A model generated the notes under the pieces. The model searched no databases. It worked only from the letters and a program-made list of their open reading frames with translations, and was not told where the DNA came from. A stretch of DNA of 58,340 nucleotides from Minisyncoccota bacterium (lineage in GTDB: Bacteria > Patescibacteriota > Minisyncoccia > Phycocordibacterales > UBA6899), in contig DATEZQ010000004.1 of assembly GCA_035583355.1 (NCBI GenBank), forward strand, positions 1-58,340, given 5' to 3'. The translations under genes were made by a program, and so were the position numbers. How positions within the stretch are numbered: the first letter of the stretch is position 1; every line of letters starts with the position of its first letter. Positions 5,281-57,935 of this stretch are shown here, piece after piece.

Positions 5281-7386
5281 ATGCTTACCTCCGAAACAAT
5301 TTCCACCTTTCTTGCTGGGCAAAAGGCAGTTCTCCTCCTCACCTTGATTGTAAACATATGGGGCCTTGTTGCTCTTTATCGCAATGCAAGAAATCGGCCT
5401 TCTGATTTCGGTCTCGCATTCATGTTGCTTGGTCTGCTGGGATGGACCGGCAGTATTCTTGCGCTACTCTTGTTTGCGACACTACCTGCTGCACATATTG
5501 CATTCTTCTCGACAACAATGGCACTCACGGGCTTTGCTTGGTTTGCGCTCGTGTACCCCAGTGAAACATACAAAAAATACCACCTGCTTGCACTCGTCCC
5601 TGGCACCATCGTCGGGATACTTGCACTTATCCCGAATTTTTTCATAAACGGATTGAGCATCGACGCTCATGGTTATCTTTCACTCATCCGCAACCAAACA
5701 CTTACATGGTTTTCGATCTATGTGATTATTGCAGGAACGCTGCCAACATACCTACTCTTTCGCAAAAAATTCACTGAACAGAACGTTCAGATGCGCCAAC
5801 GCTTACACTGGATTGCAACTGCGTCACTCATTACTTTCACGGGGAGCTTCGTCACCAATGTACTTCTCCCAAATTTCTTTGACTTCCCCTATCTCAACAG
5901 TATTGGTCCTGCATTCTCAATGATGCTCGCAATGATCATCGTATGGATGACGTCGACTGAACATTATGTTGATTCAAAAAACGTATTTGGTATCATCACT
6001 GGACGACTTGCACTTGCCGCTGCGACGATCATCGTATTTTCAAGTATTTCAATGCTCCTTGCGCTCGGCAGCACTGAATCAGTCATCATTAACATCGTTG
6101 CAGCGTCTGCAACAGCACTCATTATTTTTGTTCTTGGTCCATGGATACGCAATGCTGGAGAATCACTCCTTCAGCAAAAAGAACGCCGACAACTCGCAGT
6201 GCATGGCAATACACGTGGACTCTTTGATGCACTTGCTCCAACAACAACTGTCGGTGAGATCATCAGTATACTTGGAAAGAAATTTGATGAAATAGCAACA
6301 GTTGAAATCCTTCTCGCAAGCAGAGCATCACCTGAGATTGCTACACATGTTGCGGCACTTGCCGAAATTCGCACCTGCACACTCAATCCCCCGACAACAT
6401 ATCTCATCGACGCATTGTCTGTTACGATGCCCCACGAAGCAGATCCTCATCGCATAGCTGTCTCTGCACTCGCAACAGCATTGGCTGCTCGTGTGATTGT
6501 GCCAATCACGCACCATCAACAGATTATTGGTATCCTTGCGCTTGGTCGCAAGAAAAACGGAAGCGGATACACAAAGCACGATGCGATTACACTTGCGTCG
6601 ACCGCTCGCATGCTTTCTCCACTTCTCATTCGCGCCTCAATAATTGAGCAAGCTGATGAGACGGCAAGGACGCTCGAAGAGAACGTCGCCCTGCGTACTC
6701 ACGCAATCAAACGTACACAAGAAGACGAACGTGATGTTGCGTATCGCCTTGCACTAATGATCACTCAGCCAATCGACGAGCTACGAGAATCCACCATTCT
6801 CACCAAGGAAAACTTCGAAACAGACATGGTGAAAATCGGAAAGACACTTGATGTTGTCTCTCAAGCCGCACAAGCATTGCTCGCATTTACACGAGCGAAA
6901 AGTGCCCCATTCACCCCCAGCAGAACATTCAACCTGAGCACGATGATTCGTGAGCTTGTCACGAGCTCGCAAGCGATTGCAAGCGATGCTGATGTCGAAC
7001 TCCGCTATGAACTTACTGATAACATACTCATCCGCGGCAATGCGACGAGTATACAAAACACACTCGCTGCGATTATTGGTAATGCCTTCAATTATCTCGG
7101 GGCCACAAACCGAGCAGTGCATATATCTCTCTCAGCAAACGCAAGTCAAGCGATCATCTCAGTGAGCGATACAGGGATCGGATTCCCAGGTGATGTGATC
7201 GACCGTATTGGTACTCCATTTTTCAATGCACATCCACGCAGAGAGGTTGAGCAGGGTCTCGGCTTAAACCTTTCAATTGCAAGAGGAATCATCTTGCAGC
7301 ATGGTGGCACGATAGTCGTAACCAGCCTGCACGAAAAAGGAACGACAGTGCGCATCGCACTCCCACTCTCAAAAGAAGAAAATTAA
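5281..7386 (+). CDS. Multi-TM GAF sensor kinase-like protein (HATPase_c intact, H-box not recognisable)
   Basis: N-terminal TM bundle and a GAF-like segment (IIGILALGRKKNGSGYTKHD). N box GNAFNY, G1 DTGIGF and G2 GLGLNLS are present. Where SHELRTP is expected the sequence reads LMITQPIDEL. Confidence 0.75.
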   Translation: MLTSETISTFLAGQKAVLLLTLIVNIWGLVALYRNARNRPSDFGLAFMLLGLLGWTGSILALLLFATLPAAHIAFFSTTMALTGFAWFALVYPSETYKKYHLLALVPGTIVGILALIPNFFINGLSIDAHGYLSLIRNQTLTWFSIYVIIAGTLPTYLLFRKKFTEQNVQMRQRLHWIATASLITFTGSFVTNVLLPNFFDFPYLNSIGPAFSMMLAMIIVWMTSTEHYVDSKNVFGIITGRLALAAATIIVFSSISMLLALGSTESVIINIVAASATALIIFVLGPWIRNAGESLLQQKERRQLAVHGNTRGLFDALAPTTTVGEIISILGKKFDEIATVEILLASRASPEIATHVAALAEIRTCTLNPPTTYLIDALSVTMPHEADPHRIAVSALATALAARVIVPITHHQQIIGILALGRKKNGSGYTKHDAITLASTARMLSPLLIRASIIEQADETARTLEENVALRTHAIKRTQEDERDVAYRLALMITQPIDELRESTILTKENFETDMVKIGKTLDVVSQAAQALLAFTRAKSAPFTPSRTFNLSTMIRELVTSSQAIASDADVELRYELTDNILIRGNATSIQNTLAAIIGNAFNYLGATNRAVHISLSANASQAIISVSDTGIGFPGDVIDRIGTPFFNAHPRREVEQGLGLNLSIARGIILQHGGTIVVTSLHEKGTTVRIALPLSKEEN

Positions 7387-7406
7387 AAACCGCCTTTGCG
7401 GTTTTT
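7385..7406. terminator. Bidirectional terminator shared by convergent genes
   Basis: aaaaaccgc-cttt-gcggttttt. It contains the TAA of the + gene (7384-7386) and the TAA of mgtA (7405-7407). Confidence 0.8.
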
Positions 7407-10047
7407 AATTATAACCAAACTTGCGTATGTACCACGTCTTAATAAGTTGCGTGAGCAACATATACATAATCATCATACCTACAAGAATCGGCCAATAGAG
7501 TGCGGGTAGGCGCACTAAACCAAGATGTTTTGCAATAGGAGAAAACGTCAGCGCAATACCCGAAATAATAACCAATATCGTTGAGATGACGAGTGGTTTA
7601 CTTGCCCAAGTCTGCAAGAATGGAATCTTTCGACTTCGAATCACATGCACAATGAGTGTTTGTGTAAGCAAAGATTCTATGAACCAACCAGTCTGCAAAA
7701 GCGCAGGCGCTTGATATGCATGGAATACGAACCACATCACCGCAAACGTCATATAATCGAATAGTGAGCTGATTGGCCCGATAAAGAGCATATATCGCCC
7801 CACATCACTGATGTGCCATTTACGTGGTTGCTCCACATATTCATCATCGACATTGTCCGTTGGGATCGTCGTCTGAGAAAAATCATACAGAAGATTATTC
7901 GCGAGGATCTGTACTGGTGTCATCGGCAAGAATGGAATAAGCACGCTCGCTCCAAGTACACTGAACATATTTCCAAAATTCGAACTCGCACCCATCTTAA
8001 TGTACTTCATGATATTGCCAAACACCTTTCTCCCCTCAACTACCCCTTCACCCAAGACAGACAAACTCATCTCAAGGAGAATGATATCAGCGGACTCCTT
8101 TGAAATGTCGACTGCGGTATCTACTGAAATTCCGACATCGGCAGTGCGTAATGCAGGTGCATCATTGATGCCATCACCCATGAAGCCCACGACGCAATCA
8201 TTTCTTTGCAGAGACTTCACAACACGTCGCTTGTGGTCAGGCAATAACTTTGCGAAGATCGTCGTTTGCACCACGACCTTATCAAGCTCTTCATCGGTCA
8301 TTTTTTCGATCTGGCCTCCGAGTAGAATTTGCACGTCTCCGTCAAGGCCCACATCATGACAGATCTTCTTTGTCACGAGTTCATTGTCCCCTGTAAGGAT
8401 CTTCACCGCGACACCGTACTTTGTGAGCTGCTTGATAGCTTCGGTTGCCGACTCTTTCGCTGGATCAAGAAATGCCATGAATCCAAGAAGTACAAAATCA
8501 TGCTCATCATCTTTCGCGTAGACCTTCTTTGGATCAGTAATCTTGCGCTCGGCGACGGCAAGCACTTGGTATCCTTCGCTACTTAACTCACGTTCAAGCG
8601 CCCAGATCTTATCGGTGCTCACCTTTTCGAAATCATGCTCGACTCCATCAAGCATATACTTCGTACAAAGTGCGACGACTTCCTCTGATGCGCCCTTACA
8701 GAACATATACTGCTGATGCGCGGAATTTTCTACGATGAGCGAAACGCGTCTACGCTCAAAGTCAAAAGGCAATTCATCGACTTTCTTGAACTCTTCCTTA
8801 AGGTGTTCAATATTCTTATCTTTTCCATGTTTCAACACCGCCCCATCAAGGAGATTCTTAAACCCTGTCTGATAGAAGCTATTAAGAAAGGCGGATCGCA
8901 ACACTGCATCGTTCGTCTCCCCATTAATATCGATATTCTTGATGAGTACGACTTCATTACGAGTCAATGTCCCGGTCTTGTCCGAGCAAAGGACGTTCAT
9001 TGCGCCAAAGTTCTGTATTGAGCTCAGATGCTTCACGATGACTTTTTTCTTTGCCATTGCGATAGCACCCTTGCTCAGGTTCACCGTCACAAGCGCGGGC
9101 AGCATTTCCGGTGTAAGTCCAACAGCAACAGATACCGCGAATAGAAATGCTTCGCCCCAATCGTGCTTACTAAAGCCATTAATGATGAATACTAGTGGCA
9201 CCATGATGCCCATGAAGCCCATCATGAGCCAGGTAAACTTACTTATTCCCTTATCGAAACTCGTCACCTCACGCTCTCCAACGATATCTTTCGCGAGACT
9301 ACCGAAAAATGTGAGCCCTCCCGTGGCAACCACGATTGCACGAGCCGACCCGCTCTCGACATTTGAACCCATGAGACAGATGTTTTGGTACTCAAGCGGA
9401 CTGTCGATCGTAGTACCTGAGGCAAACGTTGCATGCTTTTCGACAGGCAGGGCTTCTCCAGTAAGGAGGGACTGATTGACGAACAAATCCTTGCTAGTGA
9501 TGATACGAGCATCTGCGGGCACGATATCTCCCGCATTGAGTTGAAGAATATCTCCAGGCACCACATGATCAATATTTATCTCTTGCTCAATTCCACCACG
9601 AATAACCGCACAGGTGGTATGCACCATTTTACGCAATGCCTGCGCAGAACTGTATGCCTGATTTTCCTGCACAAAGCGTATGGAAACACTGATGAGCACC
9701 ATGCTGTAGATGATGACTGCAGTCGCGATGTCGGAGGTGAATACCGAAACACCACCGAGCACCAACAGAAGCAGCACCAGTGGATTCAATATAATCTTAA
9801 GCAAACGAATGGGCCAAACCCTGCGCTTTTCGCGCACAATGACATTAGTGCCGAATTTTTGCAGTAGCGATTTGACCTGTTTATTACTGAGTCCATTTTC
9901 ACTCACTTCATGCTCCGCAAGCAGCGTTTCGATGGGGCGCTCCGCAGCGACGGTCAATGAATCGAGGATTTGTGGTTTTGGTTTTTCTCCAGCAACATGA
10001 GTGCGGAAAATCATTGAACGGATTTCATCAAAATAGTGGACTTTCAT
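7405..10047 (-). CDS. mgtA: Magnesium-translocating P-type ATPase
   Basis: CSDKTGTLT phosphorylation site, TGDN and GDGINDAPAL. PFDFERRRVS and a length of about 880 aa are typical of MgtA/MgtB. The track ORF extends to 10128. Confidence 0.85.
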   Translation of the reverse strand: MKVHYFDEIRSMIFRTHVAGEKPKPQILDSLTVAAERPIETLLAEHEVSENGLSNKQVKSLLQKFGTNVIVREKRRVWPIRLLKIILNPLVLLLLVLGGVSVFTSDIATAVIIYSMVLISVSIRFVQENQAYSSAQALRKMVHTTCAVIRGGIEQEINIDHVVPGDILQLNAGDIVPADARIITSKDLFVNQSLLTGEALPVEKHATFASGTTIDSPLEYQNICLMGSNVESGSARAIVVATGGLTFFGSLAKDIVGEREVTSFDKGISKFTWLMMGFMGIMVPLVFIINGFSKHDWGEAFLFAVSVAVGLTPEMLPALVTVNLSKGAIAMAKKKVIVKHLSSIQNFGAMNVLCSDKTGTLTRNEVVLIKNIDINGETNDAVLRSAFLNSFYQTGFKNLLDGAVLKHGKDKNIEHLKEEFKKVDELPFDFERRRVSLIVENSAHQQYMFCKGASEEVVALCTKYMLDGVEHDFEKVSTDKIWALERELSSEGYQVLAVAERKITDPKKVYAKDDEHDFVLLGFMAFLDPAKESATEAIKQLTKYGVAVKILTGDNELVTKKICHDVGLDGDVQILLGGQIEKMTDEELDKVVVQTTIFAKLLPDHKRRVVKSLQRNDCVVGFMGDGINDAPALRTADVGISVDTAVDISKESADIILLEMSLSVLGEGVVEGRKVFGNIMKYIKMGASSNFGNMFSVLGASVLIPFLPMTPVQILANNLLYDFSQTTIPTDNVDDEYVEQPRKWHISDVGRYMLFIGPISSLFDYMTFAVMWFVFHAYQAPALLQTGWFIESLLTQTLIVHVIRSRKIPFLQTWASKPLVISTILVIISGIALTFSPIAKHLGLVRLPALYWPILVGMMIMYMLLTQLIKTWYIRKFGYN

Positions 10048-10119
10048 GGTAGTGCATGCGCTCAGCCTTCGCCGAATCCCTCTAATAATACCATGCCAGT
10101 ATTCACCTCCAAGCACACC

Positions 10120-10154
10120 CAAAAACAAAAACCGGCGCAGAGGCGTCGGTTTTT
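10120..10154 (-). terminator. Intrinsic terminator after ABC-F gene
   Basis: On the minus strand, accgacgc-ctct-gcgccggt (one mismatch) followed by TTTTTGTTTTT. Confidence 0.65.
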
Positions 10155-19191: not shown

Positions 19192-22100
19192 CTAGAAAGA
19201 CGCAGTGATCGTATAGGTTACATTCGCAGCATACGCACCAGCCTGCGACTGGGTAGAGATATTCCCGAGATAGCGCACTGCATATGTTGTTGGCGTAGAA
19301 CCACTGCTTACCATTGCAACGGCATCAGGAAAGGCGGTCGTATTGAACGCATACCCTGCCCCATCATATGGAGCAGAAACGACACCCATTCCGCCCGTCG
19401 CGGTCATGCGCATACCAAACTGCTCTGTCCCTGGAATTGATGCAGTATTCACAGCACCAATAGCGGCAATGGTCGAGCTGCCCGCAGAAAGCGTATTTCC
19501 GTTTATAGAGAGCACATAGCCATTGGAGGAGTTGGTCGCTGCTGTGATCGTATGCGCCACAGCCTCAGTTGTGGAGCCGAGGCCATCTGCGGTTGCAAAG
19601 CGCTCGCCACTGGCATTAAGTGACCCAAACCCAGCGGTATTATTCGAAATACTGAACGTAAGCGACTGCGATACGGGCGGTACTTCAATCCACTGGAATG
19701 ACATCATCGCAAAATCCCACTGCGCCGTCATCGCACTCGCTCCTGACGCAGAGGTGCGCAAACGCATATTCAATATCGCTCCGACTGTGTCAAGGTGATC
19801 GCCGACACTCGTCGACCAACCCGCAGCTCCACCCGAAGCAACGGTAGCCATGGAAATATTGTCTGTATATATTAGTGCGGTCGTCGCACCGGCGCCAACC
19901 GGAGACCACCCTCCAGTAACATTCGTTGACCCACCGAAATCCCTTATCCCTGCAATGACCGTACCAACCGTACCCGACATATGTCGGCTTGCGAAGAAGA
20001 TGCCGGCTGCTGCCGTATTATTGGGGAGCGACGCACCGAAATCTACATTCGCTGCTACTGCATATCCTGCAGTCGTATTATTATTGCTATCGTATCCGTA
20101 TGTTGCAAACGCTTGAGTATTCGACTTCGCTGCTCCAAGTAAATTCCATGTATTGCTCGTACCCGTCATGTCCAGGTCACTCGTATTAGCAACCGTACCT
20201 GCAGCATTTGAACCGAAAGTGATGTTTCCAACACCATCGGTATTTGTCGTTCCTATCATGACATACGCCATATTTAGTCGAATTGCTACAGTACTGTTCG
20301 AGAGACCGTGCCATCCAACACGAATCTCACCATTTGAAATATAGTTGCTCATGGTGATATTCGACTTTGACCATGCGTTAGTAGCAGCAGTAGTGGAGCA
20401 CGCAATAGAAGTAGTAGTGAGATCCTCCCACAATGTGGTGTTGTAATTATAGATCTTCGGCCTAATCGTCGGGCCAGTTGCTGAGCAAGAGTAATTCGCG
20501 CGATAAAGGATTGTATTTGCTCCTGGATAGGTTTTTACATTTTTGTATGAAACATAAAAGTCTGAAACCGTACTTGCGGTACCAGGTACTTGGAAGTATG
20601 CAGTATCTGCGCCAGTTTGTCCGGCTCCACCCATATTCGCCATCGAGTAGTCCCCCGTGATTGTTCCTCCAGAAATCTGAGTTGCACTCGAACCAGAATA
20701 CACTGGATTGACCACGACAAACGCACGAAGATAATCAATATTCACTAATGATGTGGTATTTGTTGTTGAGTAGTAGCGCACGCGGATTGTATTTGATCCG
20801 TTGATGAAGTTTGCAAGTGGAGTTGCGATTGACGTTGTTGCACTCGAGCTCCAATACCCATCATATATCTCCCAGTCGTATGCGGTTGCGGTCACTGTAG
20901 TGATTGCTGCGTCATTCAGATTCAAATTTCTCCACCCTCCTCCTGTGCATTGCGCATCTGCGGCACTATTCACTCCGACCGAAGACACCCAGTCGCATAC
21001 CTGCACGAGCGTCGAAGGCGCCGTCGCATCAAGATCAAACTCTGTTTGGAGAATAATCTTATTTGCACCATTGAGACGCACATCTCCTATATCGAGATAC
21101 GCGTTGTATCCTGACGCAGATGATGTAACTCCGAAATGTAAATTATCATCAGCAATGGCCCCGCGCCAATCTCCCATATTCACTCCTTCTGTCGCAGGAG
21201 CCGTGAGGCCAAGAATTGCAGGAGCAGTACCCGTCACGATACCACCGCCAGAAACACCATAGCGATACGATTCCGATGGGTGTATCGGTTGCTCTATCCA
21301 CTGAATCGACATCATAGCAAAATCCCACTGTGCTGTATTCACACTCGCCGCGGACACCGAGGTACGTAAACGCATATTCATCATATTTGTTACCGAGTCC
21401 GTGAAATCTTTTGGGCTCGTCGACCATCCTGTCGCACCGCCAGAGGCAACCGTTGCGACGCTGATATTATCCGTGTACACAAGTGCGGTAGTTCCCACTG
21501 CACCAACTGCAGACCAACCTCCGGTTACACTTGTACCTGCTCCGTAATCCATAACTCCCACCTGCACCGTCCCTGCAGTGCCAGACATATGCCGAGATGC
21601 GAAAAATACACCAGTGATTGCACCACCCTCTGGTATCGTCGTATTGAAATTCACATTTGCAGCCGCAGCATAGCCTGCGGTAGTATTATTGTTTCCATCA
21701 TACGCGTACGATGCAAACGCCTGAGTATTCGATTTTGCAGCACCAAGAATACTCCATGTACTTGCGGTACCGGTCATGTCGAGCGAAGCAGTATCTGATA
21801 CAGAGCCTGCTGCACTCGAACCGAAGGTGACTGCTGCACCTTCTCCAGTGTTGACGGTACCGATCATGATGTATTGCATATCAAGACGCAAAGACACAGT
21901 ACTATTAGAGAGCCCATACCAGCCTACGCGAATTTCACCACCAGAAATATAATCATTAATATTTATATTACTTTTCGCCCATGCATTTGTCGCATCTGCT
22001 GTTGCACATGCAATAGAGGCGGTCGTGAGATCCTCCCAAAGCTCAGTTGCAAAGTTATAAATCTTTGGACGTCGTGTTGGACCCGTCGCTGAACAGGAAT

Positions 22101-23028
22101 ACTCCGCACGCACGAGAATCGTATTTGCTCCGGTATACGTCTTTACATTCTTGTACGATAGATAGAAATCCGAAACGCTTCCTGCTGTTCCTGGAACTTG
22201 AAAGTATGCATTATCCGATCCCAACTGCCCCGCACCTCCGATATTCGCCATTGCATAATCTCCAACGATCGTACCGCCTGAGAGCTGCGTCGCACCGGAA
22301 GCAGAGTAAACAGGATTCACCACCGCAAATACGCGGAGATAATCAATATTCACAAGTGAAGTTGTGTTTGTTGTCGAGTAATAACGCACACGGATCGTAT
22401 TTGAACCGTTCACAAAATTAGTGAGGGGCGTATTAATTGAACTCGTTGCGCTTGCACCCCAGTATCCATTATAGACCTGCCAATCATATGCAGTTCCCGT
22501 GGTCGGTGCTATTGTCGCGTCATTTAAATTTAAATTTCTCCACCCTCCCCCAGTACACTGCGCGTCCGCCGCACCATTGACGCCAACTGAAGAAACCCAG
22601 TCACAAACCTGGACAAGCGTTGCAGGAGCAGTAGCATCGAGATCTAACTCAGTCTCGAAGATCAATTTATTCGCACCATTGAGCACAACATTACCCAGAT
22701 CAAGATATGCATTATAACCACTTGCGGTAGAAGAAAAACCCCAATGCAAGTTATCATCCGCAACAGTACCCTTCCAATCACCCATATTTACACCCTCAGC
22801 AGTAGGGGCGGTAAGACCGAGAATAGGTGCTGCAGTACCCGTCACTAGCCCACCACCCGAGGGATCAAACTGATATGATGCACGAGCGATTTTCGTGGTC
22901 TTTGGGAATACGCCAGCTCTAGAAAAGAGCGGGATATAACCTGTAGCAAAAAGGACGCTCGCCACGATGAGTATGACTGCGAGACTTTTCTTGCCCGATA
23001 TGATTATATGTTCATAAAGTCTTCCCAT
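19192..23028 (-). CDS. 1278-aa anchored/secreted adhesin-like protein: two ~536-aa repeats plus a fibre-type C-terminal domain
   Basis: N-terminal hydrophobic helix (LAVILIVASVLFATGYIPLF). Two tandem repeats with conserved Cys pairs (VCDWVSSVGVN..AADAQCTGGGW; YSCSATGPT..SIAC). The C-terminal 160 aa are homologous to the C-terminus of the 17973..19025 product. Confidence 0.7.
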   Translation of the reverse strand: MGRLYEHIIISGKKSLAVILIVASVLFATGYIPLFSRAGVFPKTTKIARASYQFDPSGGGLVTGTAAPILGLTAPTAEGVNMGDWKGTVADDNLHWGFSSTASGYNAYLDLGNVVLNGANKLIFETELDLDATAPATLVQVCDWVSSVGVNGAADAQCTGGGWRNLNLNDATIAPTTGTAYDWQVYNGYWGASATSSINTPLTNFVNGSNTIRVRYYSTTNTTSLVNIDYLRVFAVVNPVYSASGATQLSGGTIVGDYAMANIGGAGQLGSDNAYFQVPGTAGSVSDFYLSYKNVKTYTGANTILVRAEYSCSATGPTRRPKIYNFATELWEDLTTASIACATADATNAWAKSNININDYISGGEIRVGWYGLSNSTVSLRLDMQYIMIGTVNTGEGAAVTFGSSAAGSVSDTASLDMTGTASTWSILGAAKSNTQAFASYAYDGNNNTTAGYAAAANVNFNTTIPEGGAITGVFFASRHMSGTAGTVQVGVMDYGAGTSVTGGWSAVGAVGTTALVYTDNISVATVASGGATGWSTSPKDFTDSVTNMMNMRLRTSVSAASVNTAQWDFAMMSIQWIEQPIHPSESYRYGVSGGGIVTGTAPAILGLTAPATEGVNMGDWRGAIADDNLHFGVTSSASGYNAYLDIGDVRLNGANKIILQTEFDLDATAPSTLVQVCDWVSSVGVNSAADAQCTGGGWRNLNLNDAAITTVTATAYDWEIYDGYWSSSATTSIATPLANFINGSNTIRVRYYSTTNTTSLVNIDYLRAFVVVNPVYSGSSATQISGGTITGDYSMANMGGAGQTGADTAYFQVPGTASTVSDFYVSYKNVKTYPGANTILYRANYSCSATGPTIRPKIYNYNTTLWEDLTTTSIACSTTAATNAWSKSNITMSNYISNGEIRVGWHGLSNSTVAIRLNMAYVMIGTTNTDGVGNITFGSNAAGTVANTSDLDMTGTSNTWNLLGAAKSNTQAFATYGYDSNNNTTAGYAVAANVDFGASLPNNTAAAGIFFASRHMSGTVGTVIAGIRDFGGSTNVTGGWSPVGAGATTALIYTDNISMATVASGGAAGWSTSVGDHLDTVGAILNMRLRTSASGASAMTAQWDFAMMSFQWIEVPPVSQSLTFSISNNTAGFGSLNASGERFATADGLGSTTEAVAHTITAATNSSNGYVLSINGNTLSAGSSTIAAIGAVNTASIPGTEQFGMRMTATGGMGVVSAPYDGAGYAFNTTAFPDAVAMVSSGSTPTTYAVRYLGNISTQSQAGAYAANVTYTITASF
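19675..22875. repeat. Intragenic tandem duplication, 2 x ~1.6 kb (about 19675-21267 and 21268-22875)
   Basis: Each copy starts Y(Q/R)(F/Y)..SGGG..VTGTA and ends QWDFAMMS(I/F)QWIE. The period is 1608 nt. The copies are diverged, about 70-80% aa identity by eye. Confidence 0.85.
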
Positions 23029-38176: not shown

Positions 38177-38677
38177 ATGCAACGTACTAAGGGTTTTACA
38201 CTCATCGAACTACTTGTGGTCATCGCAATCATCGCGCTACTTTCGAGCGTCGCCCTTGCCACCCTTACCTCTGTACGAGTAAAAGCGCGCGACTCCAAAC
38301 GTGTCGAAGAAGCCCGCCAGATTGTGCATGCGATGTCGCTTTTTGCATCTGAGGCTGGGAGTGGTCTTCCTCCCCAAGCTACAGCGAATTATTCCAATGC
38401 ATCATCTTCTTCTCCTTACTGCGGAAGCAATAACACAGCGTGCTGGACGGACCTCTACGCACAGCTATCACCCTACTTCCCAAGAATGCCGAAAGACTCC
38501 GCAAACAGCTACCCTTACGTGTACTACTATAGGCCATTAGGATACAATTCATGCAATGCGGACAAGCTCCCTGTCGTCGTCTTCATTACTGAGTCCAACG
38601 AGTACCCTTCACTCAACAACTTCTCCTTCAATACAGGCACAGCAACAGTGACCGCATATTGCCTTATTGTTCCATAA
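38177..38677 (+). CDS. Type IV pilin-like protein (prepilin N-terminal cleavage/methylation domain)
   Basis: MQRTKG|FTLIELLVVIAIIALLSS class III signal with Glu at +5. Variable Cys-containing C-terminal domain. Confidence 0.8.
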   Translation: MQRTKGFTLIELLVVIAIIALLSSVALATLTSVRVKARDSKRVEEARQIVHAMSLFASEAGSGLPPQATANYSNASSSSPYCGSNNTACWTDLYAQLSPYFPRMPKDSANSYPYVYYYRPLGYNSCNADKLPVVVFITESNEYPSLNNFSFNTGTATVTAYCLIVP

Positions 38678-41711: not shown

Positions 41712-41745
41712 AAAACAAAAATCCATGAAGCTTCGCTTCATGGAT
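41711..41745 (-). terminator. Intrinsic terminator after tRNA-Asn
   Basis: atccatgaagc-ttc-gcttcatggat, with TTTTTGTTTTC downstream on the minus strand. Confidence 0.85.
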
Positions 41746-41757
41746 TAATGTTTTCTG

Positions 41758-42070
41758 CTCCGGCGGCAGGATTCGAACCTGCGACCAATACGTTACTCAT
41801 GTTCACTGCTTTCGTAGTGGGAGGACTATATCATCACCCTTCTTTCGAGTGGGGTGCGAGGCGCTTCCCGTCCTAGATAAATCTAAGATAGTACTCCTTG
41901 CGGATAGTCTCTGAACCTTCGATGTGATTACTCACAAAGCTTGGCTGCTGATCGCCCTCGTCTTTCTCGTTAGGGTTTCCAGCAATTCACCTCGTTATTC
42001 ACCATTTCATTACTGAGATGGGCTGCGTTTAACGCCACAGCGTACTGCTCTACCGCTGAGCTACACCGGA
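41758..42070 (-). tRNA. tRNA-Asn(GUU) interrupted by a group I intron (exons 42070-42037 and 41795-41758)
   Basis: The spliced 72-nt product has acceptor TCCGGTG/CGCCGGA, D arm GCTC-AGCGGTA-GAGC, anticodon stem GTACG/CGTAT, loop CTGTTAA, T arm GCAGG-TTCGAAT-CCTGC and discriminator G. CCA is not encoded. Confidence 0.85.
41796..42036 (-). ncRNA. Group I self-splicing intron (IC3-like), 241 nt, in the anticodon loop between positions 35 and 36
   Basis: Core elements GGTTCAGAGACTATCCG and GATGATATAGTCCTC (P7 GACTAT/ATAGTC), plus GAAACCCTAA and GCCAAGC. In P1, exon GCUGU pairs with intron GCAGC, with U-G at the splice site. In P10, intron CGUUA pairs with exon-2 UAACG. The terminal nucleotide is G. 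Confidence 0.85.
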
Positions 42071-44131: not shown

Positions 44132-45811
44132 ATGGCAAAAAAGACAATCATACAGCATGCTGTCTTTGGCGGGGCCTACGCGTCACATGCCGCGCCTGTG
44201 TTTTCGCGCATCGTCGGCGTACTCTCAGTGTCCCTCGGAAACACACCTACAAACGGAACACCTTTTGTCCATATCAATTTTGACGACACACTCACCTCAT
44301 ACACAAAACTCGTCGAACTCTACATCACCCTCACACTGCAATCAAAAAATACTCCGGTAATTATTTACCCATACAACACCCCACAAAGAGAAGAGCTTAG
44401 TAAACTTTTCTCAACCGATCGAATGAAGTTTCCTCCTCAAGAAGTATTACTCGAAACGTTTTCAGACTTTACTGGACAAGAACGCATCCCTCCCCCGCCG
44501 CTCGATATTCTCCTCTATCTCGCACGCCCCGACGAAGCGAGTGTACGTCTAATGACAAAAGAAGGTGCGGTTGCGGAACTGGAGGAAACGAAACGCGCGG
44601 TACTCAATCTTCTCGAGGATACTCGAGAATCTGAAGAGAAAATCACCGCACAAGCCGCTGACTTAGCAAAGGCGCTTGAAGATTCGCGAGCATTTGCACG
44701 ATCTGCAGAGGAAGAACGCGCGACCTACCACCAGCTCGTTTCTTCTATTGGAGAAGGCGTCATTGTACTTGGTGCGGATGGACTCATAAAAATCGTGAAT
44801 GATGTGACGGTCTCTATGATTGGCGAGCCAAGAGAATCACTCATCAACAAAGATCCCGTTGCTGCACTACATTTGCGCGATAGAGAGCGCAATGAACTTC
44901 CTCAAGAATACTGGGATGCGATTCTCAAAACTGAAAAGACGATCACGCTCCCCATTCTCACAAGCGTTCGTAACGATGGCACAGTTATTTATGCTTCAAG
45001 CATTGCCGCTCCCATCGTAAACGAAACAACAAAAGAGCACAAAGGAATCATCATTACCTTTCGTAATATCAGTGAAGATTTTGCGCTCGACGAGGCGCGA
45101 ACAAATTTCATCTCCACTGCATCACATCAGTTGCGTACACCACTGACCACGATTCGCTGGTTCATTGAAATGCTTCAAAGTGGTGATGCTGGCGCGCTCA
45201 CTGAAGGCCAGAAACAATACCTCCATCAAATCGATGAGGGCATCGCACGCATGATCAACCTAGTTGGTTTCCTATTGCGTACGGCAAGAGTTGAAACAAA
45301 CAGAGTGATCATCACTCCAAAGCCACTCTCACTCCGTAAGGCAATCGAAGCCTGTGTGTCTGAGCTTATGCCACGCCTAAAAAACAAGAAGCAGACAGTA
45401 TCAATCGCCGGCGACGACCTCCCCGAAATTCCTCTCGATCCTGACTATGTCCATGAGGTGTTTCTAACGATTCTTATGAACGCGCAGCTTTATGGCATCC
45501 CCGGAGACACAATATATGTACAATTAGAGCGAAGTGGAAATTTCGTAGAGGTACATATTACCGATCACGGAATGGGTATTGCCCAGGATGAACGCAAGCG
45601 TGTCTTCGATAAATTCTTTCGCTCAAACAAGGCTATTGTCGCCTCCCCTGATGGCTCGGGGCTTGGACTCTCCCTTGTACGCATGCTCGTTTCTGACTGG
45701 GGCGGGAATGTATGGTTCGAGAGCGAGGAGGACAAAGGTACAACCTTTTCCGTCTCCATCCCCGTCTCGGGCATGAATGCACGCGAAGGTGAAGTTACTC
45801 TGCTCGAGTAG
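44132..45811 (+). CDS. Cytoplasmic sensor histidine kinase: degenerate MsrA-like N-domain, coiled coil, PAS, HisKA, HATPase_c
   Basis: H box FISTASHQLRTPL, N box LMNAQLYG, G1 DHGMGI, G2 GSGLGLSL. No TM helix. Residues 1-100 align with this window's own MsrA but lack GCFW. Confidence 0.85.
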   Translation: MAKKTIIQHAVFGGAYASHAAPVFSRIVGVLSVSLGNTPTNGTPFVHINFDDTLTSYTKLVELYITLTLQSKNTPVIIYPYNTPQREELSKLFSTDRMKFPPQEVLLETFSDFTGQERIPPPPLDILLYLARPDEASVRLMTKEGAVAELEETKRAVLNLLEDTRESEEKITAQAADLAKALEDSRAFARSAEEERATYHQLVSSIGEGVIVLGADGLIKIVNDVTVSMIGEPRESLINKDPVAALHLRDRERNELPQEYWDAILKTEKTITLPILTSVRNDGTVIYASSIAAPIVNETTKEHKGIIITFRNISEDFALDEARTNFISTASHQLRTPLTTIRWFIEMLQSGDAGALTEGQKQYLHQIDEGIARMINLVGFLLRTARVETNRVIITPKPLSLRKAIEACVSELMPRLKNKKQTVSIAGDDLPEIPLDPDYVHEVFLTILMNAQLYGIPGDTIYVQLERSGNFVEVHITDHGMGIAQDERKRVFDKFFRSNKAIVASPDGSGLGLSLVRMLVSDWGGNVWFESEEDKGTTFSVSIPVSGMNAREGEVTLLE

Positions 45812-51415: not shown

Positions 51416-53218
51416 TCAATTCTTCTCTGATGCGCTCGCCATCGCCTCACCAATTACCCTTGAAAGGCTTTTTATGGTATAGGGTTTTGGCAGTGACGCC
51501 TTGAAACCTGTAGGGATGCGATCAGAGTACCCACTGGAAATGATTGCAATAAGCTCGGGATTAATCTCGAGCAAACGCTTGAGCGTCTCCTCTCCCCCCA
51601 TACCTCCAGGAATCGTCAGATCGAGAATAACGAGATCGAAGGGTTCACCACTGAATGCGGTGGACTGATAGATCTCAATCGCCTCAACCCCATGACTTGC
51701 AACGGTGACCTTGTGCCCCAACATTGCGAGCGCCTCGGTAAGCACCTCCTGCATTGCCCGATCATCATCCATCGCAAGGATCTTGCATGGACGCGACACA
51801 ATAGACTTTTCTACTCGTTCAGGGACAGGCTGGGCATCAGGACCAAGGGCAGGCAAATAAATACAGAACGTTGTCCCCTTCCCCTCCTTTGAGTTCACGA
51901 TGATTTTTCCATGGTGTTTTTCAATGATGCGATACACCACAGAGAGACCTAAGCCAGAACCTGCTCTTTCACCTTTTGTAGTGAAGTACGGCTCGAAAAT
52001 CCTCTCGATGTACTTATCAGGAATCCCAATTCCTTTGTCGATGACCGAGATATGAATATAGTCACCTCGAACTTGAACCGCTTCCGGGTCAACAGCATTC
52101 TTCGCCAGGATGCGTATCTTTCCACCATCAGGCATAGCCTGGTTCGCATTCAGGACTAGATTTTGGATTACTTGACCAATCTGCGACGCATCGATATCAG
52201 CAAGCCAAAGATCATCCGAAAGCTCGAGCTCACAGACAGATTTCGATCCTTTGCCGATAATAAACTCGGCCGATTCGCGAATCACCTGTGCAACCGATGT
52301 TGTCTTTGTGCAAGGAATACCTCCACGTGCAAACGCGAGTAGCTGCTGCGTCAAACCTGTCGCGCGCTCAGTCGCTTTCACAATTGCATCAAGCGACCCT
52401 CGCTGTTGGTCGTCCCGAGAAGTCATGCTTGCCATTGAGGCTTGCGCCATGATTGCGGTCAAGATGTTGTTGAAATCATGCGCAATACCACCAGCAAGAA
52501 TTCCAAGCGATTCAAGCTTTTGCAACTTTGAGCGCTCCTCACCCGCCATGCGATACTTCGTGATATCAGCAACATGTCCGTGCCAAAGGATTCCACCATC
52601 CTCCTCCAATTCTGGAGTTGAATGACTGAGAAGCCATTTAATCGGCTGACCGGGGAGCTTAATACGAAATTCCTTCTGCCGCAAACTAAGGTTCGCAGCA
52701 GAGAGTTCAAATGACTCAATGAGGCTTTGGTAGTCCTCGGGAAGAACCACATTCCCGATAGGGTCATAGCATTCGAACACCTGTTCGGGGCGGCATCCAA
52801 AAATCTCATAGATTCCTTCTGTGGTAAATGGGACTGAATAGGTCCCATCAGGTCTGCGCCTGAATTGAAATACCACACCAGGAATATGCGAAATGAGCTT
52901 ATGAAAGCGCACCTCATTCTCCCGCAGTACGCGCTGCGCTCTATTGCGCTCTGCAATAAAACTATTTTCGCGCTGTTTGATGTAATACGCGACCAAACCA
53001 ACAATCGCCACGACAAACAAAATCGTATAGAGCCGTGATTCAATGATGGTAATTCCGGGGCGAATCGTATGCTGCATCCATTCGAATACAGTCATGACTA
53101 CAAGCGCAAACAACATGCTTGCCAGCACGATATACGGAGTATTTCGACTACTGGAAAGACGGACAAAATTCAACTTCCTAGGCATACAACACCACACTTT
53201 CTCGAGCAGTGCTCGCAT
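51416..53218 (-). CDS. Hybrid sensor histidine kinase / response regulator (2 TM, PAS, HisKA, HATPase_c, REC)
   Basis: GGIAHDFNNILTAI H box, NLVLNANQAM, DKGIGI, GSGLGLSVV. C-terminal REC domain (KILAMDDD...DLVILDLTIPGG). Confidence 0.85.
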   Translation of the reverse strand: MRALLEKVWCCMPRKLNFVRLSSSRNTPYIVLASMLFALVVMTVFEWMQHTIRPGITIIESRLYTILFVVAIVGLVAYYIKQRENSFIAERNRAQRVLRENEVRFHKLISHIPGVVFQFRRRPDGTYSVPFTTEGIYEIFGCRPEQVFECYDPIGNVVLPEDYQSLIESFELSAANLSLRQKEFRIKLPGQPIKWLLSHSTPELEEDGGILWHGHVADITKYRMAGEERSKLQKLESLGILAGGIAHDFNNILTAIMAQASMASMTSRDDQQRGSLDAIVKATERATGLTQQLLAFARGGIPCTKTTSVAQVIRESAEFIIGKGSKSVCELELSDDLWLADIDASQIGQVIQNLVLNANQAMPDGGKIRILAKNAVDPEAVQVRGDYIHISVIDKGIGIPDKYIERIFEPYFTTKGERAGSGLGLSVVYRIIEKHHGKIIVNSKEGKGTTFCIYLPALGPDAQPVPERVEKSIVSRPCKILAMDDDRAMQEVLTEALAMLGHKVTVASHGVEAIEIYQSTAFSGEPFDLVILDLTIPGGMGGEETLKRLLEINPELIAIISSGYSDRIPTGFKASLPKPYTIKSLSRVIGEAMASASEKN

Positions 53219-54941: not shown

Positions 54942-57935
54942 ATGTCTACTACCGTAAACAAAAATGCCCGAACAGTTAGGTCTATCTGTTTCCAGGGCAC
55001 CGCAATAGCGATCTTTCTTGTTGTCATTCTCTGCAACATTCTTTCGTTATACCCACTATGTGCAGAAAGCTCAACGAGCACTACGTCATTTGCAACTTCA
55101 GTACAATCAAGTAGTGCTTCGCCTGGAATACTTCGTTCTGAATTTCATTTTCTCGGAAACAAGAACATTGCTCCGGTGCTATTTCTTCAAGGGGATACAG
55201 CGGCAGGACTTGCCGCTGACATCGTGAACGAAATGTCTAAACATATGTCCAAACCAATTGTAATCACCGCAATGGATTGGACTAATGCACAACAGCTGGT
55301 TGCAGCAGGTGAAGCTGACGCGCTAATTCAAATCAATCAAAACCCTGAGCGACTAAAGATCTATGATTTCTCAGACCCCTTGCTCGAATCTCACTTTTCC
55401 ATCTTCGTAAGGGACATCCGCGGAGACATTTCAGACCTCGTGAGCCTAAAAGGAAAGCGCGTGGGGGTCGAAGCAGGCGGGCTTCCCGCGCAAGTTCTTG
55501 CGAATGATAATGAGATTGAATCAATAGTCGTGCCGAATTTCACTCAGGCTTTTGCACTACTCAATGCTGATACAATCGATGCGGTTATTGTCGATTATCG
55601 CGTTGGGGCGTACATACTCGCCGCAAATAATATTCGTGGAGTGAAAGTAGTAGGCATGCCTATTGCATCATCATACTCTGCTCTTGCTGTAAAGAAAGGA
55701 AATGTCGCCCTGCTCAGCGAAATCAATACGGCTTTACGTACAATCAAGACAGACGGAACATATCAGGCAATACTCGATAGATGGAAACCCAAAGAGGTTA
55801 TATTCATTACGCAGGAAAAAATCACTGACTATATTCACACACTCCTCATTATCATTCTTTTAATTTCCCTTATCGCCACAGCAGTATGGTCTCTACTCCT
55901 GATGCGAGAATTGAAGAAAAGAAAGATTGCAGAGACTGCCGAGCTTAAAGCAAAGAAATACTCGGAAAAACTTGTAAGTGCAGCAAATGCAATGATTATA
56001 TGCCTCGACCGGGAGGGGAAAATAAATGTCTTTAATGAAGCTGCAGAAAATATCACAGGATACAAAAAAGAAGAGGTAATCGGGCAAAACTGGTTCAGGT
56101 TGGTCGTTCCTCGTAATCTATACCCAGAGGCATGGAAGATATTTGAGGATTTCCAGAAGCAAGGAAAATCCATTCTAGGTGAATTTCAAAACCCAATTCT
56201 CACTAAATCAGGAGAAGAGAGGATTATTGAGTGGCGTAATTCTGACCTTCTCGACGGCAATAGTGTTGTGGGCACCATTTCCTTTGGTATTGATGTTACA
56301 GAACAAAAACTAATAGAGAAAAAACGGATCGAGTCTGAGGAAAAGTTCTCCGCTGCATTCAACGCTTCACCAGACCTAATGGCAATAACTCGAGCTGCGG
56401 ATGGCAAAATCCTAGAAATTAATGAAGGGTATACACGTATGCTCGGATATGAGCGCGCAGAGTCTGTAGGTAAAACGACGGCGGAGCTTGCTATCTGGGC
56501 AGATACAGCTGATCGAGCAAAATTCATATCGCTCCTACAGCAAAATAATTCAGTAATTGACTTTGAGACCAAGCTTAAAAGGAAAGACGGGAAAATAATT
56601 ACCGTCATTGATTCTGCACGAATGTTTGATCTTCTTGGGCAAGCGTGTATCCTCTCAACTGCACATGATATTAGTGATCGAATTCATGAGGAACAGGAAC
56701 TAAAACGCACAAACCGTGCACTCTCTATTCTAAGCGCAACAAATCAAGAACTCATTCATGTCACAGAGGAAAAGGCTCTTCTCGACAAAATAAGTAAAAT
56801 CATCACCGACATTGGTGGATATCGGCTTATGTGGATTGGTTTTGCATACAAAGACAGAACAAAGACACTACACGTAGCCGCACAATCAGGCTTCATGCAT
56901 AATAATATGACTTCGCCAGATATAAACTGGGAGGATGCACCTGGTAACAAGAACCCTGCAAGCGTAGCAATTCGTACCGGAAAAACACAAATTGCCTACA
57001 ATATACAAAATGACCCGAAGCTGTCACCGTGGAGGGATGCAGCCGTACAGAGTGGGAGCAGATCATCTATCGCCCTCCCCCTCACCAGCGAAGGAGAGAC
57101 CTTTGGTGTGGTAAATATCTACTCAAGCGAAACGGATGCCTTTAATGATCAGGAAGTTAAAATACTCGAAGAACTAACCAGCGATCTCGCTTTTGGTATT
57201 ACCACTCTACGCAAAGAAGAAAAAATTGAAGAGCGAACGAAGGAAATCGACCAACTCAAAAATAAATTCATTCAGATTGTCTCTCACCAACTTAATACAC
57301 CTCTAAACGTCATACGCTGGAGCCTTGAAGCAATTATGGACAGGAAGCGCGGTGAAGTTCCTGCAGCAATATTAGAACTTCTCAAGGGGACGTATGCTGC
57401 AGATCTTGAGATTATATCGAGAATAGGCGACCTACTTACTGCAATGAACATTGAAGAAGGGCAGATACATCTTAGTAGAGATGCTACCAACATGGATGAT
57501 CTTCTCCGTCCAACCTGCGAAGAGAAACTGAAATTGACACACCTTAAAAACATCACTTATGAAATTACACCACTTCAGTCAACAATTCCCATAGTGAATG
57601 TGGACGCGGAAAAAATTCGCGATGTTGTTGCGCGTCTTGTAGACAATGCCGTAACTTACACGAAAGATGGCGGGCATATTAATGTAAAATATTTTACACA
57701 AGACCATACCTTCCGCTTTGAAATTACAGACTCTGGAGTCGGAATCCCCTCATCAGAGCAATCAAAGGTATTCGAGCGTTTTCATAGGGGATGGAATGCA
57801 GCACAAATGAAACCTGACGCATCTGGGTTGAGTTTGTATATCGCCAAAAAATACATTGACATTCATGATGGAAGGATTGGGTTTAATTCAACTGAGGAAG
57901 GTGGGAGTACGTTTTGGTTCGAACTTCCACAATAA
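54942..57935 (+). CDS. Sensor histidine kinase with extracytoplasmic family-3 solute-binding domain, TM, 2 PAS, GAF, HisKA, HATPase_c
   Basis: Signal/TM, an SBP_bac_3-like domain (KGKRVGVEAGG..., DAVIVDY), and a TM helix LLIIILLISLIATAVWSLLL. PAS repeats and GAF. H box IVSHQLNTPL, DSGVGI, ASGLSLYI. Confidence 0.85.
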   Translation: MSTTVNKNARTVRSICFQGTAIAIFLVVILCNILSLYPLCAESSTSTTSFATSVQSSSASPGILRSEFHFLGNKNIAPVLFLQGDTAAGLAADIVNEMSKHMSKPIVITAMDWTNAQQLVAAGEADALIQINQNPERLKIYDFSDPLLESHFSIFVRDIRGDISDLVSLKGKRVGVEAGGLPAQVLANDNEIESIVVPNFTQAFALLNADTIDAVIVDYRVGAYILAANNIRGVKVVGMPIASSYSALAVKKGNVALLSEINTALRTIKTDGTYQAILDRWKPKEVIFITQEKITDYIHTLLIIILLISLIATAVWSLLLMRELKKRKIAETAELKAKKYSEKLVSAANAMIICLDREGKINVFNEAAENITGYKKEEVIGQNWFRLVVPRNLYPEAWKIFEDFQKQGKSILGEFQNPILTKSGEERIIEWRNSDLLDGNSVVGTISFGIDVTEQKLIEKKRIESEEKFSAAFNASPDLMAITRAADGKILEINEGYTRMLGYERAESVGKTTAELAIWADTADRAKFISLLQQNNSVIDFETKLKRKDGKIITVIDSARMFDLLGQACILSTAHDISDRIHEEQELKRTNRALSILSATNQELIHVTEEKALLDKISKIITDIGGYRLMWIGFAYKDRTKTLHVAAQSGFMHNNMTSPDINWEDAPGNKNPASVAIRTGKTQIAYNIQNDPKLSPWRDAAVQSGSRSSIALPLTSEGETFGVVNIYSSETDAFNDQEVKILEELTSDLAFGITTLRKEEKIEERTKEIDQLKNKFIQIVSHQLNTPLNVIRWSLEAIMDRKRGEVPAAILELLKGTYAADLEIISRIGDLLTAMNIEEGQIHLSRDATNMDDLLRPTCEEKLKLTHLKNITYEITPLQSTIPIVNVDAEKIRDVVARLVDNAVTYTKDGGHINVKYFTQDHTFRFEITDSGVGIPSSEQSKVFERFHRGWNAAQMKPDASGLSLYIAKKYIDIHDGRIGFNSTEEGGSTFWFELPQ

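Follow-up and report, generated by a model that had tools for sequence, protein, structure and literature searches.

The stretch of DNA analysed here, called the window (58,340 nucleotides), carries on its minus strand what is in all likelihood a tRNA-Asn(GUU) gene split between U35 and U36 by a group I intron of the IA2 type, 241 nt long and free of open reading frames (Table 1). The 5' half of the tRNA reads TCCGGTGTAGCTCAGCGGTAGAGCAGTACGCTGT and the 3' half TAACGTATTGGTCGCAGGTTCGAATCCTGCCGCCGGAG. When the two halves are joined, ARAGORN recognises a tRNA-Asn(GTT) with a regular cloverleaf; the ligated exon sequence predicted at the 35/36 junction is ACGCUGUUAACGUA, with the anticodon loop CUGUUAA. 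The discriminator base G73 is followed by CAG, so that CCA is not encoded and must therefore be added post-transcriptionally. The intron is recognised by the Rfam model RF00028 (Intron_gpI; match at 42072-41803 on the minus strand, 67.3 bits, E=5.9e-15), which is covered over its full length (model positions 1-253 of 253) at a score above the curated gathering score of 50 bits. Intron_gpI is the sole Rfam family matched within the window. With its intron option off, as is the default, ARAGORN reports no tRNA anywhere in the window.

An earlier note on this DNA had placed a tRNA-Asn(GUU) gene with a 241-nt group I intron at 41758-42070. Its coordinates and length are correct, with the gene on the minus strand, and two of the checks it proposed, an RF00028 scan and a tRNA call on the spliced sequence, gave the results described above. 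The group I core that it recognised is confirmed by the Rfam match and by covariation across six homologs.

Table 1. Coordinates of the split tRNA-Asn gene, the elements of its intron and the adjacent hairpin, in positions of the window.
Feature	Position	Strand	Description
tRNA-Asn 5' exon, tRNA positions 1-35	42070-42037	-	34 nt, ends C32 U33 G34 U35; evidence: sequence
Group I intron	42036-41796	-	241 nt, without ORF; starts GGCG, ends GAG; evidence: RF00028, homologs, covariation
P1 hairpin	42022..42041	-	exon GCUGU (42041-42037) with guide GCAGC (intron 11-15, 42026-42022)
P10 guide CGUUA (intron 3-7)	42030..42034	-	complementary to exon-2 UAACG (41795-41791), 5 bp
P2	42002..42021	-	8-bp hairpin with GUAA tetraloop; one C-A mismatch (U-A in L003)
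P3 5' strand, J3/4, P4-P5-P6-P6a domain	41915..41994	-	P3 5' strand CGAGG (41994-41990)
P7 5' strand G(A)GACUA	41905..41911	-	bulged A; pairs with UAGUCC (41828-41823); guanosine-binding helix; invariant
P7.1, GUA linker, P7.2	41868..41904	-	P7.1 is UCC-GCAA-GGA; between P7 and P3'; from segment folds
P3 3' strand, P8	41835..41861	-	P3 3' strand CCUCG (41861-41857); P8 CACCC...GGGUG
P7 3' strand UAGUCC, P9.0, P9 hairpin, terminal G	41796..41828	-	terminal G at 41796
tRNA-Asn 3' exon, tRNA positions 36-73	41795-41758	-	38 nt, starts U36 A37 A38 (UAACG); discriminator G73
Candidate bidirectional intrinsic terminator	41720-41746	.	12-bp hairpin, T-runs on both strands, 12 nt 3' of the tRNA

The elements of the intron can be assigned one by one. 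In P1, a U35-G11 wobble lies at the 5' splice site and G1 of the intron pairs with C10. The central domain consists of P4 (UGCUGG/UCAGCA), P5 (CCCU/AGGG), P6 (GCC/GGU) and P6a with a GUAA loop. P9.0 is formed by UC (41822-41821) with GA (41798-41797), and the P9 hairpin (41819-41804) has a GAAA loop and one A-C mismatch. GNRA tetraloops thus cap P2, P6a, P7.1 and P9 (GUAA, GUAA, GCAA and GAAA, respectively). Two mismatches in the periphery, the C-A of P2 and the A-C of P9, occur at positions where a close homolog (L003, see below) is paired. The P1 helix GCUGU/GCAGC with a U-G pair at the cut, the P7 strands and the 3'-terminal G had been claimed from inspection of the sequence, and all are present.

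Downstream of the tRNA, the hairpin at 41746-41720 is a perfect 12-bp stem, AATCCATGAAGC-GAA-GCTTCATGGATT, and a hairpin of this kind is also conserved behind the tRNA of L003. It resembles an intrinsic terminator that acts in both directions and would end the tRNA transcription unit.

When 185,579 species-representative genomes were scanned for exact copies of the 38-nt 3' exon, it was present at two loci. One of them (L002, 2651-2725 on the plus strand), in a Candidatus Lloydbacteria MAG of the Parcubacteria group, is an intron-less tRNA-Asn(GTT) gene with the loop CTGTTAA, identical to the window exons at 71 of 72 nt (33/34 in the 5' exon and 38/38 in the 3' exon), although it encodes CCA, unlike the tRNA in the window. 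This gene is a natural "empty site" for the window intron. The L002 locus also contains a match to the Rfam LOOT RNA (5626-5767; 50.4 bits, gathering score 46.4). The other locus (L003, annotated as "MAG: bacterium isolate SKS1.bin43") has a homologous intron of 258 nt, likewise at 35/36. The flanking DNA shows synteny with the window, at 71-79% nucleotide identity, and the scan found one copy of the 3' exon in this MAG, the intron-containing one.

A search of metagenomes with a motif built on P4 and P6, AATTGCTGGAAA-N(8-38)-ATCAGCAGCCAAG, matched at least 120 loci. ARAGORN found a split tRNA in 9 of the 126 motif regions examined, the window and L003 included. Once a U before the intron (U-1) and a terminal G were required, six of the nine proved to be tRNA-Asn(GUU) genes split at 35/36, the four additional ones being metagenomic genes with differing exon sequences and introns of 227 nt (L037), 342 nt (L048), 243 nt (L063) and 562 nt (L079). 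The six introns share 72-91% identity. Four of the five homologs also pass the Rfam gathering score; L048 falls below it, probably because of a large insertion in P6. Two further split genes are a tRNA-Leu(CAA) interrupted after loop position 1 (L077) and a CAU tRNA interrupted after position 5 (L120); the presence of this core in other tRNAs fits with intron lineages that move between tRNA sites. For the ninth (L064), there was no solution with U-1 and a terminal G. At six other loci (L035, L078, L115, L128, L134 and L192), the core motif of the intron occurs two or three times within about 0.3-1.3 kb, except for one copy in L115 that lies ~8 kb from the other two, which suggests genes with multiple related introns.

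The six tRNA-Asn introns (window, L003, L037, L048, L063 and L079, two of them close to each other) were aligned with MAFFT. From this alignment, RNAalifold recovers P1, P2, P3, P4, P5, P6, P6a, P8, P9.0 and the anticodon-stem pairs of the exons. Standard base pairs occupy 96.3% of the cells (the P7 pseudoknot included), as compared to 34.5-42.0% in controls in which the pairing partners were slid by 1-3 columns, and 22 pairs show changes on both sides, versus 1-5 in the slid controls. None of 500 shuffles reached the observed values of pairing and covariation. Compensatory changes affect seven of the eight pairs in P2, and P3, P5, P6a and P8 covary as well. P4, P6 and P7 are invariant among the six homologs and are therefore uninformative for covariation, either way. 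As P9, P7.2 and P6a were poorly aligned, they were assessed by folding segments individually: the hairpins P2 (GNRA-capped), P5, P6a, P7.1, P7.2, P8 and P9 occur at corresponding places in all six introns, with differing sequences. The minimum free energy fold of the window intron alone reproduces P2-P9. Its stability does not differ significantly from that of shuffled sequences (z=-0.64), so the energy is not used as evidence.

The alignment also bears on the position of the splice sites. The four P1 pairs CUGU/GCAG, including the U-G wobble, are invariant among the six homologs. P9.0, which adjoins the terminal G, occurs as UC/GA, AC/GU, AU/AU and GC/GC, so that both of its pairs covary (AU in three, UA in two and GC in one intron; CG in five and UA in one). 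An invariant wobble on one side and a covarying helix directly before the terminal G on the other fix both splice sites. According to the earlier note, the sites were set by P1, P10 and the terminal G. P10 is indeed present in the window intron, but by inspection it occurs only there and in L003 and is absent from L037, L048, L063 and L079, so that it has to be rejected as a 3' determinant for the lineage as a whole. Across the lineage, the predicted 3' splice site is fixed by P9.0 and the terminal G.

With introns allowed, ARAGORN reports a different gene for both the window and L003, namely a tRNA-Thr(agt) with an intron of the same length shifted by 2 nt, i(33,241). The intron would then separate U33 from position 34, 2 nt upstream of the 35/36 site, in a gene for tRNA-Thr(AGU). 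This register likewise has a U before the cut and a G at the end of the intron, yet we see next to no chance that it is correct. The base before the cut would be opposite an A of the guide rather than a G, which abolishes the U-G wobble, and the terminal G would be separated from the covarying P9.0. In the Thr register, the homologs would have the anticodons AGU, UGU, UGU and CGU, with none at all for L063, whereas the 35/36 register gives GUU in all six genes. The uninterrupted copy of the tRNA body in L002 has the anticodon GTT. G73, finally, is the discriminator base of tRNA-Asn in E. coli. The tRNA-Thr(AGU) call was thus rejected on the grounds of the U-G wobble, P9.0, the comparison of anticodons and L002, and an insertion between 35 and 36 with the ligated loop given above, as originally proposed, is borne out by the spliced tRNA, the intron-less L002 gene and the homologs.

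The gene thus illustrates a pitfall of routine annotation, being either missed (ARAGORN in default mode) or named tRNA-Thr(AGU) because of a 2-nt misregister. As standard tRNA finders miss or misplace it, the genome, if annotated in the usual way, would appear to lack a tRNA-Asn.

A further claim of the earlier note, that the intron resembles the IC3 introns of tRNA genes such as that of Azoarcus, is true of the motifs it named but does not hold for the subgroup. The shared features are location in an anticodon loop, a U-G pair in P1, a terminal G, small size, retention of the anticodon-stem pairing between the exons, and the shared core motifs GAAACC, GCCAAG, AGAGACUA and AUAGUCC. In the IC3 seeds (Azoarcus included), however, P3' follows almost directly after P7, at a distance of 2-3 nt (GAGACUAGACGG) and without P7.1 or P7.2, as it does in the tRNA introns of Anabaena and Synechocystis. 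This arrangement is not found in the window intron, where 37 nt with two hairpins separate GAGACUA from GAAGCG. In all six tRNA-Asn introns, GAGACUA is followed by a small hairpin, then by GUA and another hairpin ahead of P3'. Two hairpins, P7.1 and P7.2, joined by G-U-A are the hallmark of subgroup IA2 (PMC3428280; also PMC4227781), and this element is present in 6/6 introns although the stem sequences differ. J3/4 is GUGAAUU in the window as against GUCAAAUU in IC3, and the IC3 hosts and sites are different ones (Leu at 34/35, Ile and Arg at 36/37). When 15 seeds were compared in crude pairwise alignments, none was less similar than that of Azoarcus, contrary to what is expected if IC3 introns were the closest relatives. 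One difference separates the window intron from some IA2 introns: these have extended P9.1/P9.2 elements, whereas the 27 nt after P7' hold P9.0 and a single P9 hairpin, with neither P9.1 nor P9.2.

The nearest annotated relatives of the window intron are introns of phages. A blastn search of 50,697 phage genomes matched 84 records, of which the best falls in the interrupted thyX of Alteromonas phage AD45-P1, with 76.7% identity across 73% of the query; other matches are in DNA polymerase genes of Bacillus phages and in Staphylococcus, Enterococcus and crAss-like phages. The likeness comprises the P3-P7 core (70-83% identity over 35-73% of the intron) and the GUA-linked P7.1/P7.2. Phage IA2 introns frequently contain HNH endonuclease ORFs, and they differ in that they interrupt protein-coding genes, not tRNAs; according to a 2014 review, the phage introns known by then were all in protein-coding genes (PMC3984707). 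The P4/P6 motif is present in at least 120 viral contigs (L124-L243), and none of the 124 viral regions examined had a split tRNA at the motif. In AD45-P1 (L244, 65098-70266), thyX is annotated as two separate "thymidylate synthase" CDSs that flank HNH and GIY-YIG ORFs, and the split appears to be an unannotated intron. Given the P7.1-GUA-P7.2 element, the distance from the Azoarcus seed and the phage relatives, we classify the predicted structure of the window intron as IA2-like and not IC3.

In the classical view, bacterial tRNA introns are of the IC3 type and reside in tRNA-Leu, fMet, Ile and Arg genes. An IA2-type intron with its closest annotated relatives among phage introns of protein-coding genes, found in an anticodon loop in the window and in five homologs, contrasts with this view. 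Our search of the open-access literature found no paper that links IA2 introns to tRNA anticodon loops, and for group I introns combined with tRNA-Asn or CPR it gave mitochondrial or unrelated papers, or nothing.

The host and insertion site, which the earlier note did not count among the classical cases, are on record nevertheless. Williams (bioRxiv 10.1101/2020.01.27.920355) searched 80,413 genomes of bacteria and 1,028 of archaea, which raised the classical settings of tRNA and intron from four to 21. Among the seeds of the alignment given there is "Pam37.Asn.4Ug". In the nomenclature of that work (Leu.3Ug standing for CUU/AAAA), position 4 corresponds to the 35/36 site, so that Asn.4Ug denotes an intron that follows the fourth loop nucleotide of tRNA-Asn, is preceded by U-1 and ends in G; introns at position 4 of Lys, Tyr and Asp tRNAs are also among the seeds. 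The window gene has just these properties: the spliced product is tRNA-Asn(GUU), and the loop reads CUGU | intron...G | UAA with U-1 and a terminal G. The class of host and site was therefore already known, and current understanding is not overturned, because this class had been catalogued computationally in 2020.

The Pam37 seed nevertheless differs from our introns in several respects. Both share the tRNA-Asn host, the 35/36 site, the U before the cut, the terminal G, a P9.0 of the AC/GU type and additional structure in the P7-P3' interval. In Pam37, however, P1 pairs UGU with a GUA guide, the P4 strands are UCAAGG/CCCUGA, and the interval holds a single long hairpin containing the motif CAAUAA rather than P7.1-GUA-P7.2. 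Its identity to the six introns is 63-68%, as compared to 72-91% among the six. Due to these differences in guide, P4, P7-P3' segment and identity, the introns described here probably form a separate sub-lineage at the 35/36 site.

Although no homing endonuclease ORF is found in the 241-nt intron of the window, one of its homologs has such a gene. The 562-nt tRNA-Asn intron of L079 (3630-4267, minus strand) contains in the loop of P1 (L1) an ORF for a 104-aa protein that matches the Pfam HNH domain (PF01844, 22.9 bits, cutoff 21.4). The ORF ends just past the guide GCAGC, overlapping the 5' strand of P2. On sequence grounds, this points to a lineage mobile by homing, with the L079 intron as a candidate for its mobile form, and we infer that a mobile ancestor gave rise to the copy in the window, which lacks the ORF. 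The window intron, the L079 intron with its HNH gene and the uninterrupted tRNA gene of L002 together provide a compact system for tests of homing into an anticodon loop.

The mechanism that we propose is modelled on the established two-step pathway of group I introns. The exon segment G31-U35 would pair with the guide GCAGC to form P1, with the U35-G wobble at the cut. A free guanosine held in P7 would then attack 3' of U35. G241 would subsequently take the guanosine site, being placed by P9.0 (UC/GA) and, in the window copy, also by P10, so that the 3'-OH of U35 could attack after G241 and join the exons to the loop C-U-G-U-U-A-A. End processing would follow and then, because CCA is not encoded, CCA addition.

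Two alternatives question whether the intron acts in this way. It might be a decaying relic that no longer splices, leaving the tRNA a pseudogene and Asn codons to be decoded by another tRNA-Asn gene. The lack of an endonuclease ORF and the mismatches that P2 and P9 show where L003 is paired could be read in this sense, and a second tRNA-Asn gene may exist elsewhere in the genome, the data being those of the 58-kb window. We nevertheless consider a relic quite improbable. P3, P4, P6, P7, J8/7, the bulged A, the terminal G and the U-G pair are intact and identical to those of the five homologs. The differences from the L003 intron include a compensatory change in P6a (U-A to C-G) and loop changes from one GNRA tetraloop to another, which is the pattern that selection for the fold would produce. 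The near-identity of the exons to the functional-looking intron-less gene of L002 also argues against decay, as does the related MAG L003, in which the exact scan revealed a single, intron-containing copy of the 3' exon.

It is somewhat less improbable, but still unlikely, that the intron is excised in vivo with the help of a host protein, either a chaperone or a maturase. Certain IA-type introns are protein-assisted in vivo, and the unremarkable stability of the fold together with the two peripheral mismatches would be compatible with such a dependence. On the other hand, the window intron encodes no maturase, it is compact, with four of its hairpins (P2, P6a, P7.1 and P9) GNRA-capped, and related phage IA2 introns, such as that of Pf-WMP3, self-splice in vitro (PMC3428280). 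We thus favour self-splicing: the window intron is, judging from its conserved features, probably a functional self-splicing intron, and we infer that splicing occurs and requires no protein.

A more far-reaching scenario is that an IA2 lineage of phage type, distinct both from IC3 and from Pam37, has independently invaded the tRNA-Asn genes of Patescibacteria-like bacteria at position 35/36, has been spread by an HNH endonuclease and interrupts the only tRNA-Asn gene of the cell. Taken as a whole, this remains a tentative proposal that we would not expect to hold in all its parts. If the only tRNA-Asn gene is indeed interrupted, the decoding of every Asn codon would depend on self-splicing of a ribozyme.

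The surroundings of the gene give some indications on its host. A protein of 1278 aa encoded at 19192-23028 on the minus strand has the NCBIfam domain CPR_Pam_pilin_C at its C-terminus (64.6 bits, cutoff 55), which, together with the near-identity to the Lloydbacteria tRNA, hints at an origin from Patescibacteria/CPR. A separate ORF at 38177-38677 (plus strand) has a pilin N-methylation motif, and the two genes suggest a pilus system of the type found in Patescibacteria. The window also contains four PAS/histidine-kinase sensor genes within its 58 kb (5281-7386, 44132-45811, 51416-53218 and 54942-57935) and a gene for an MgtA-type P-type ATPase (7405-10128), which would be a rich sensory repertoire if the host is a reduced CPR bacterium.
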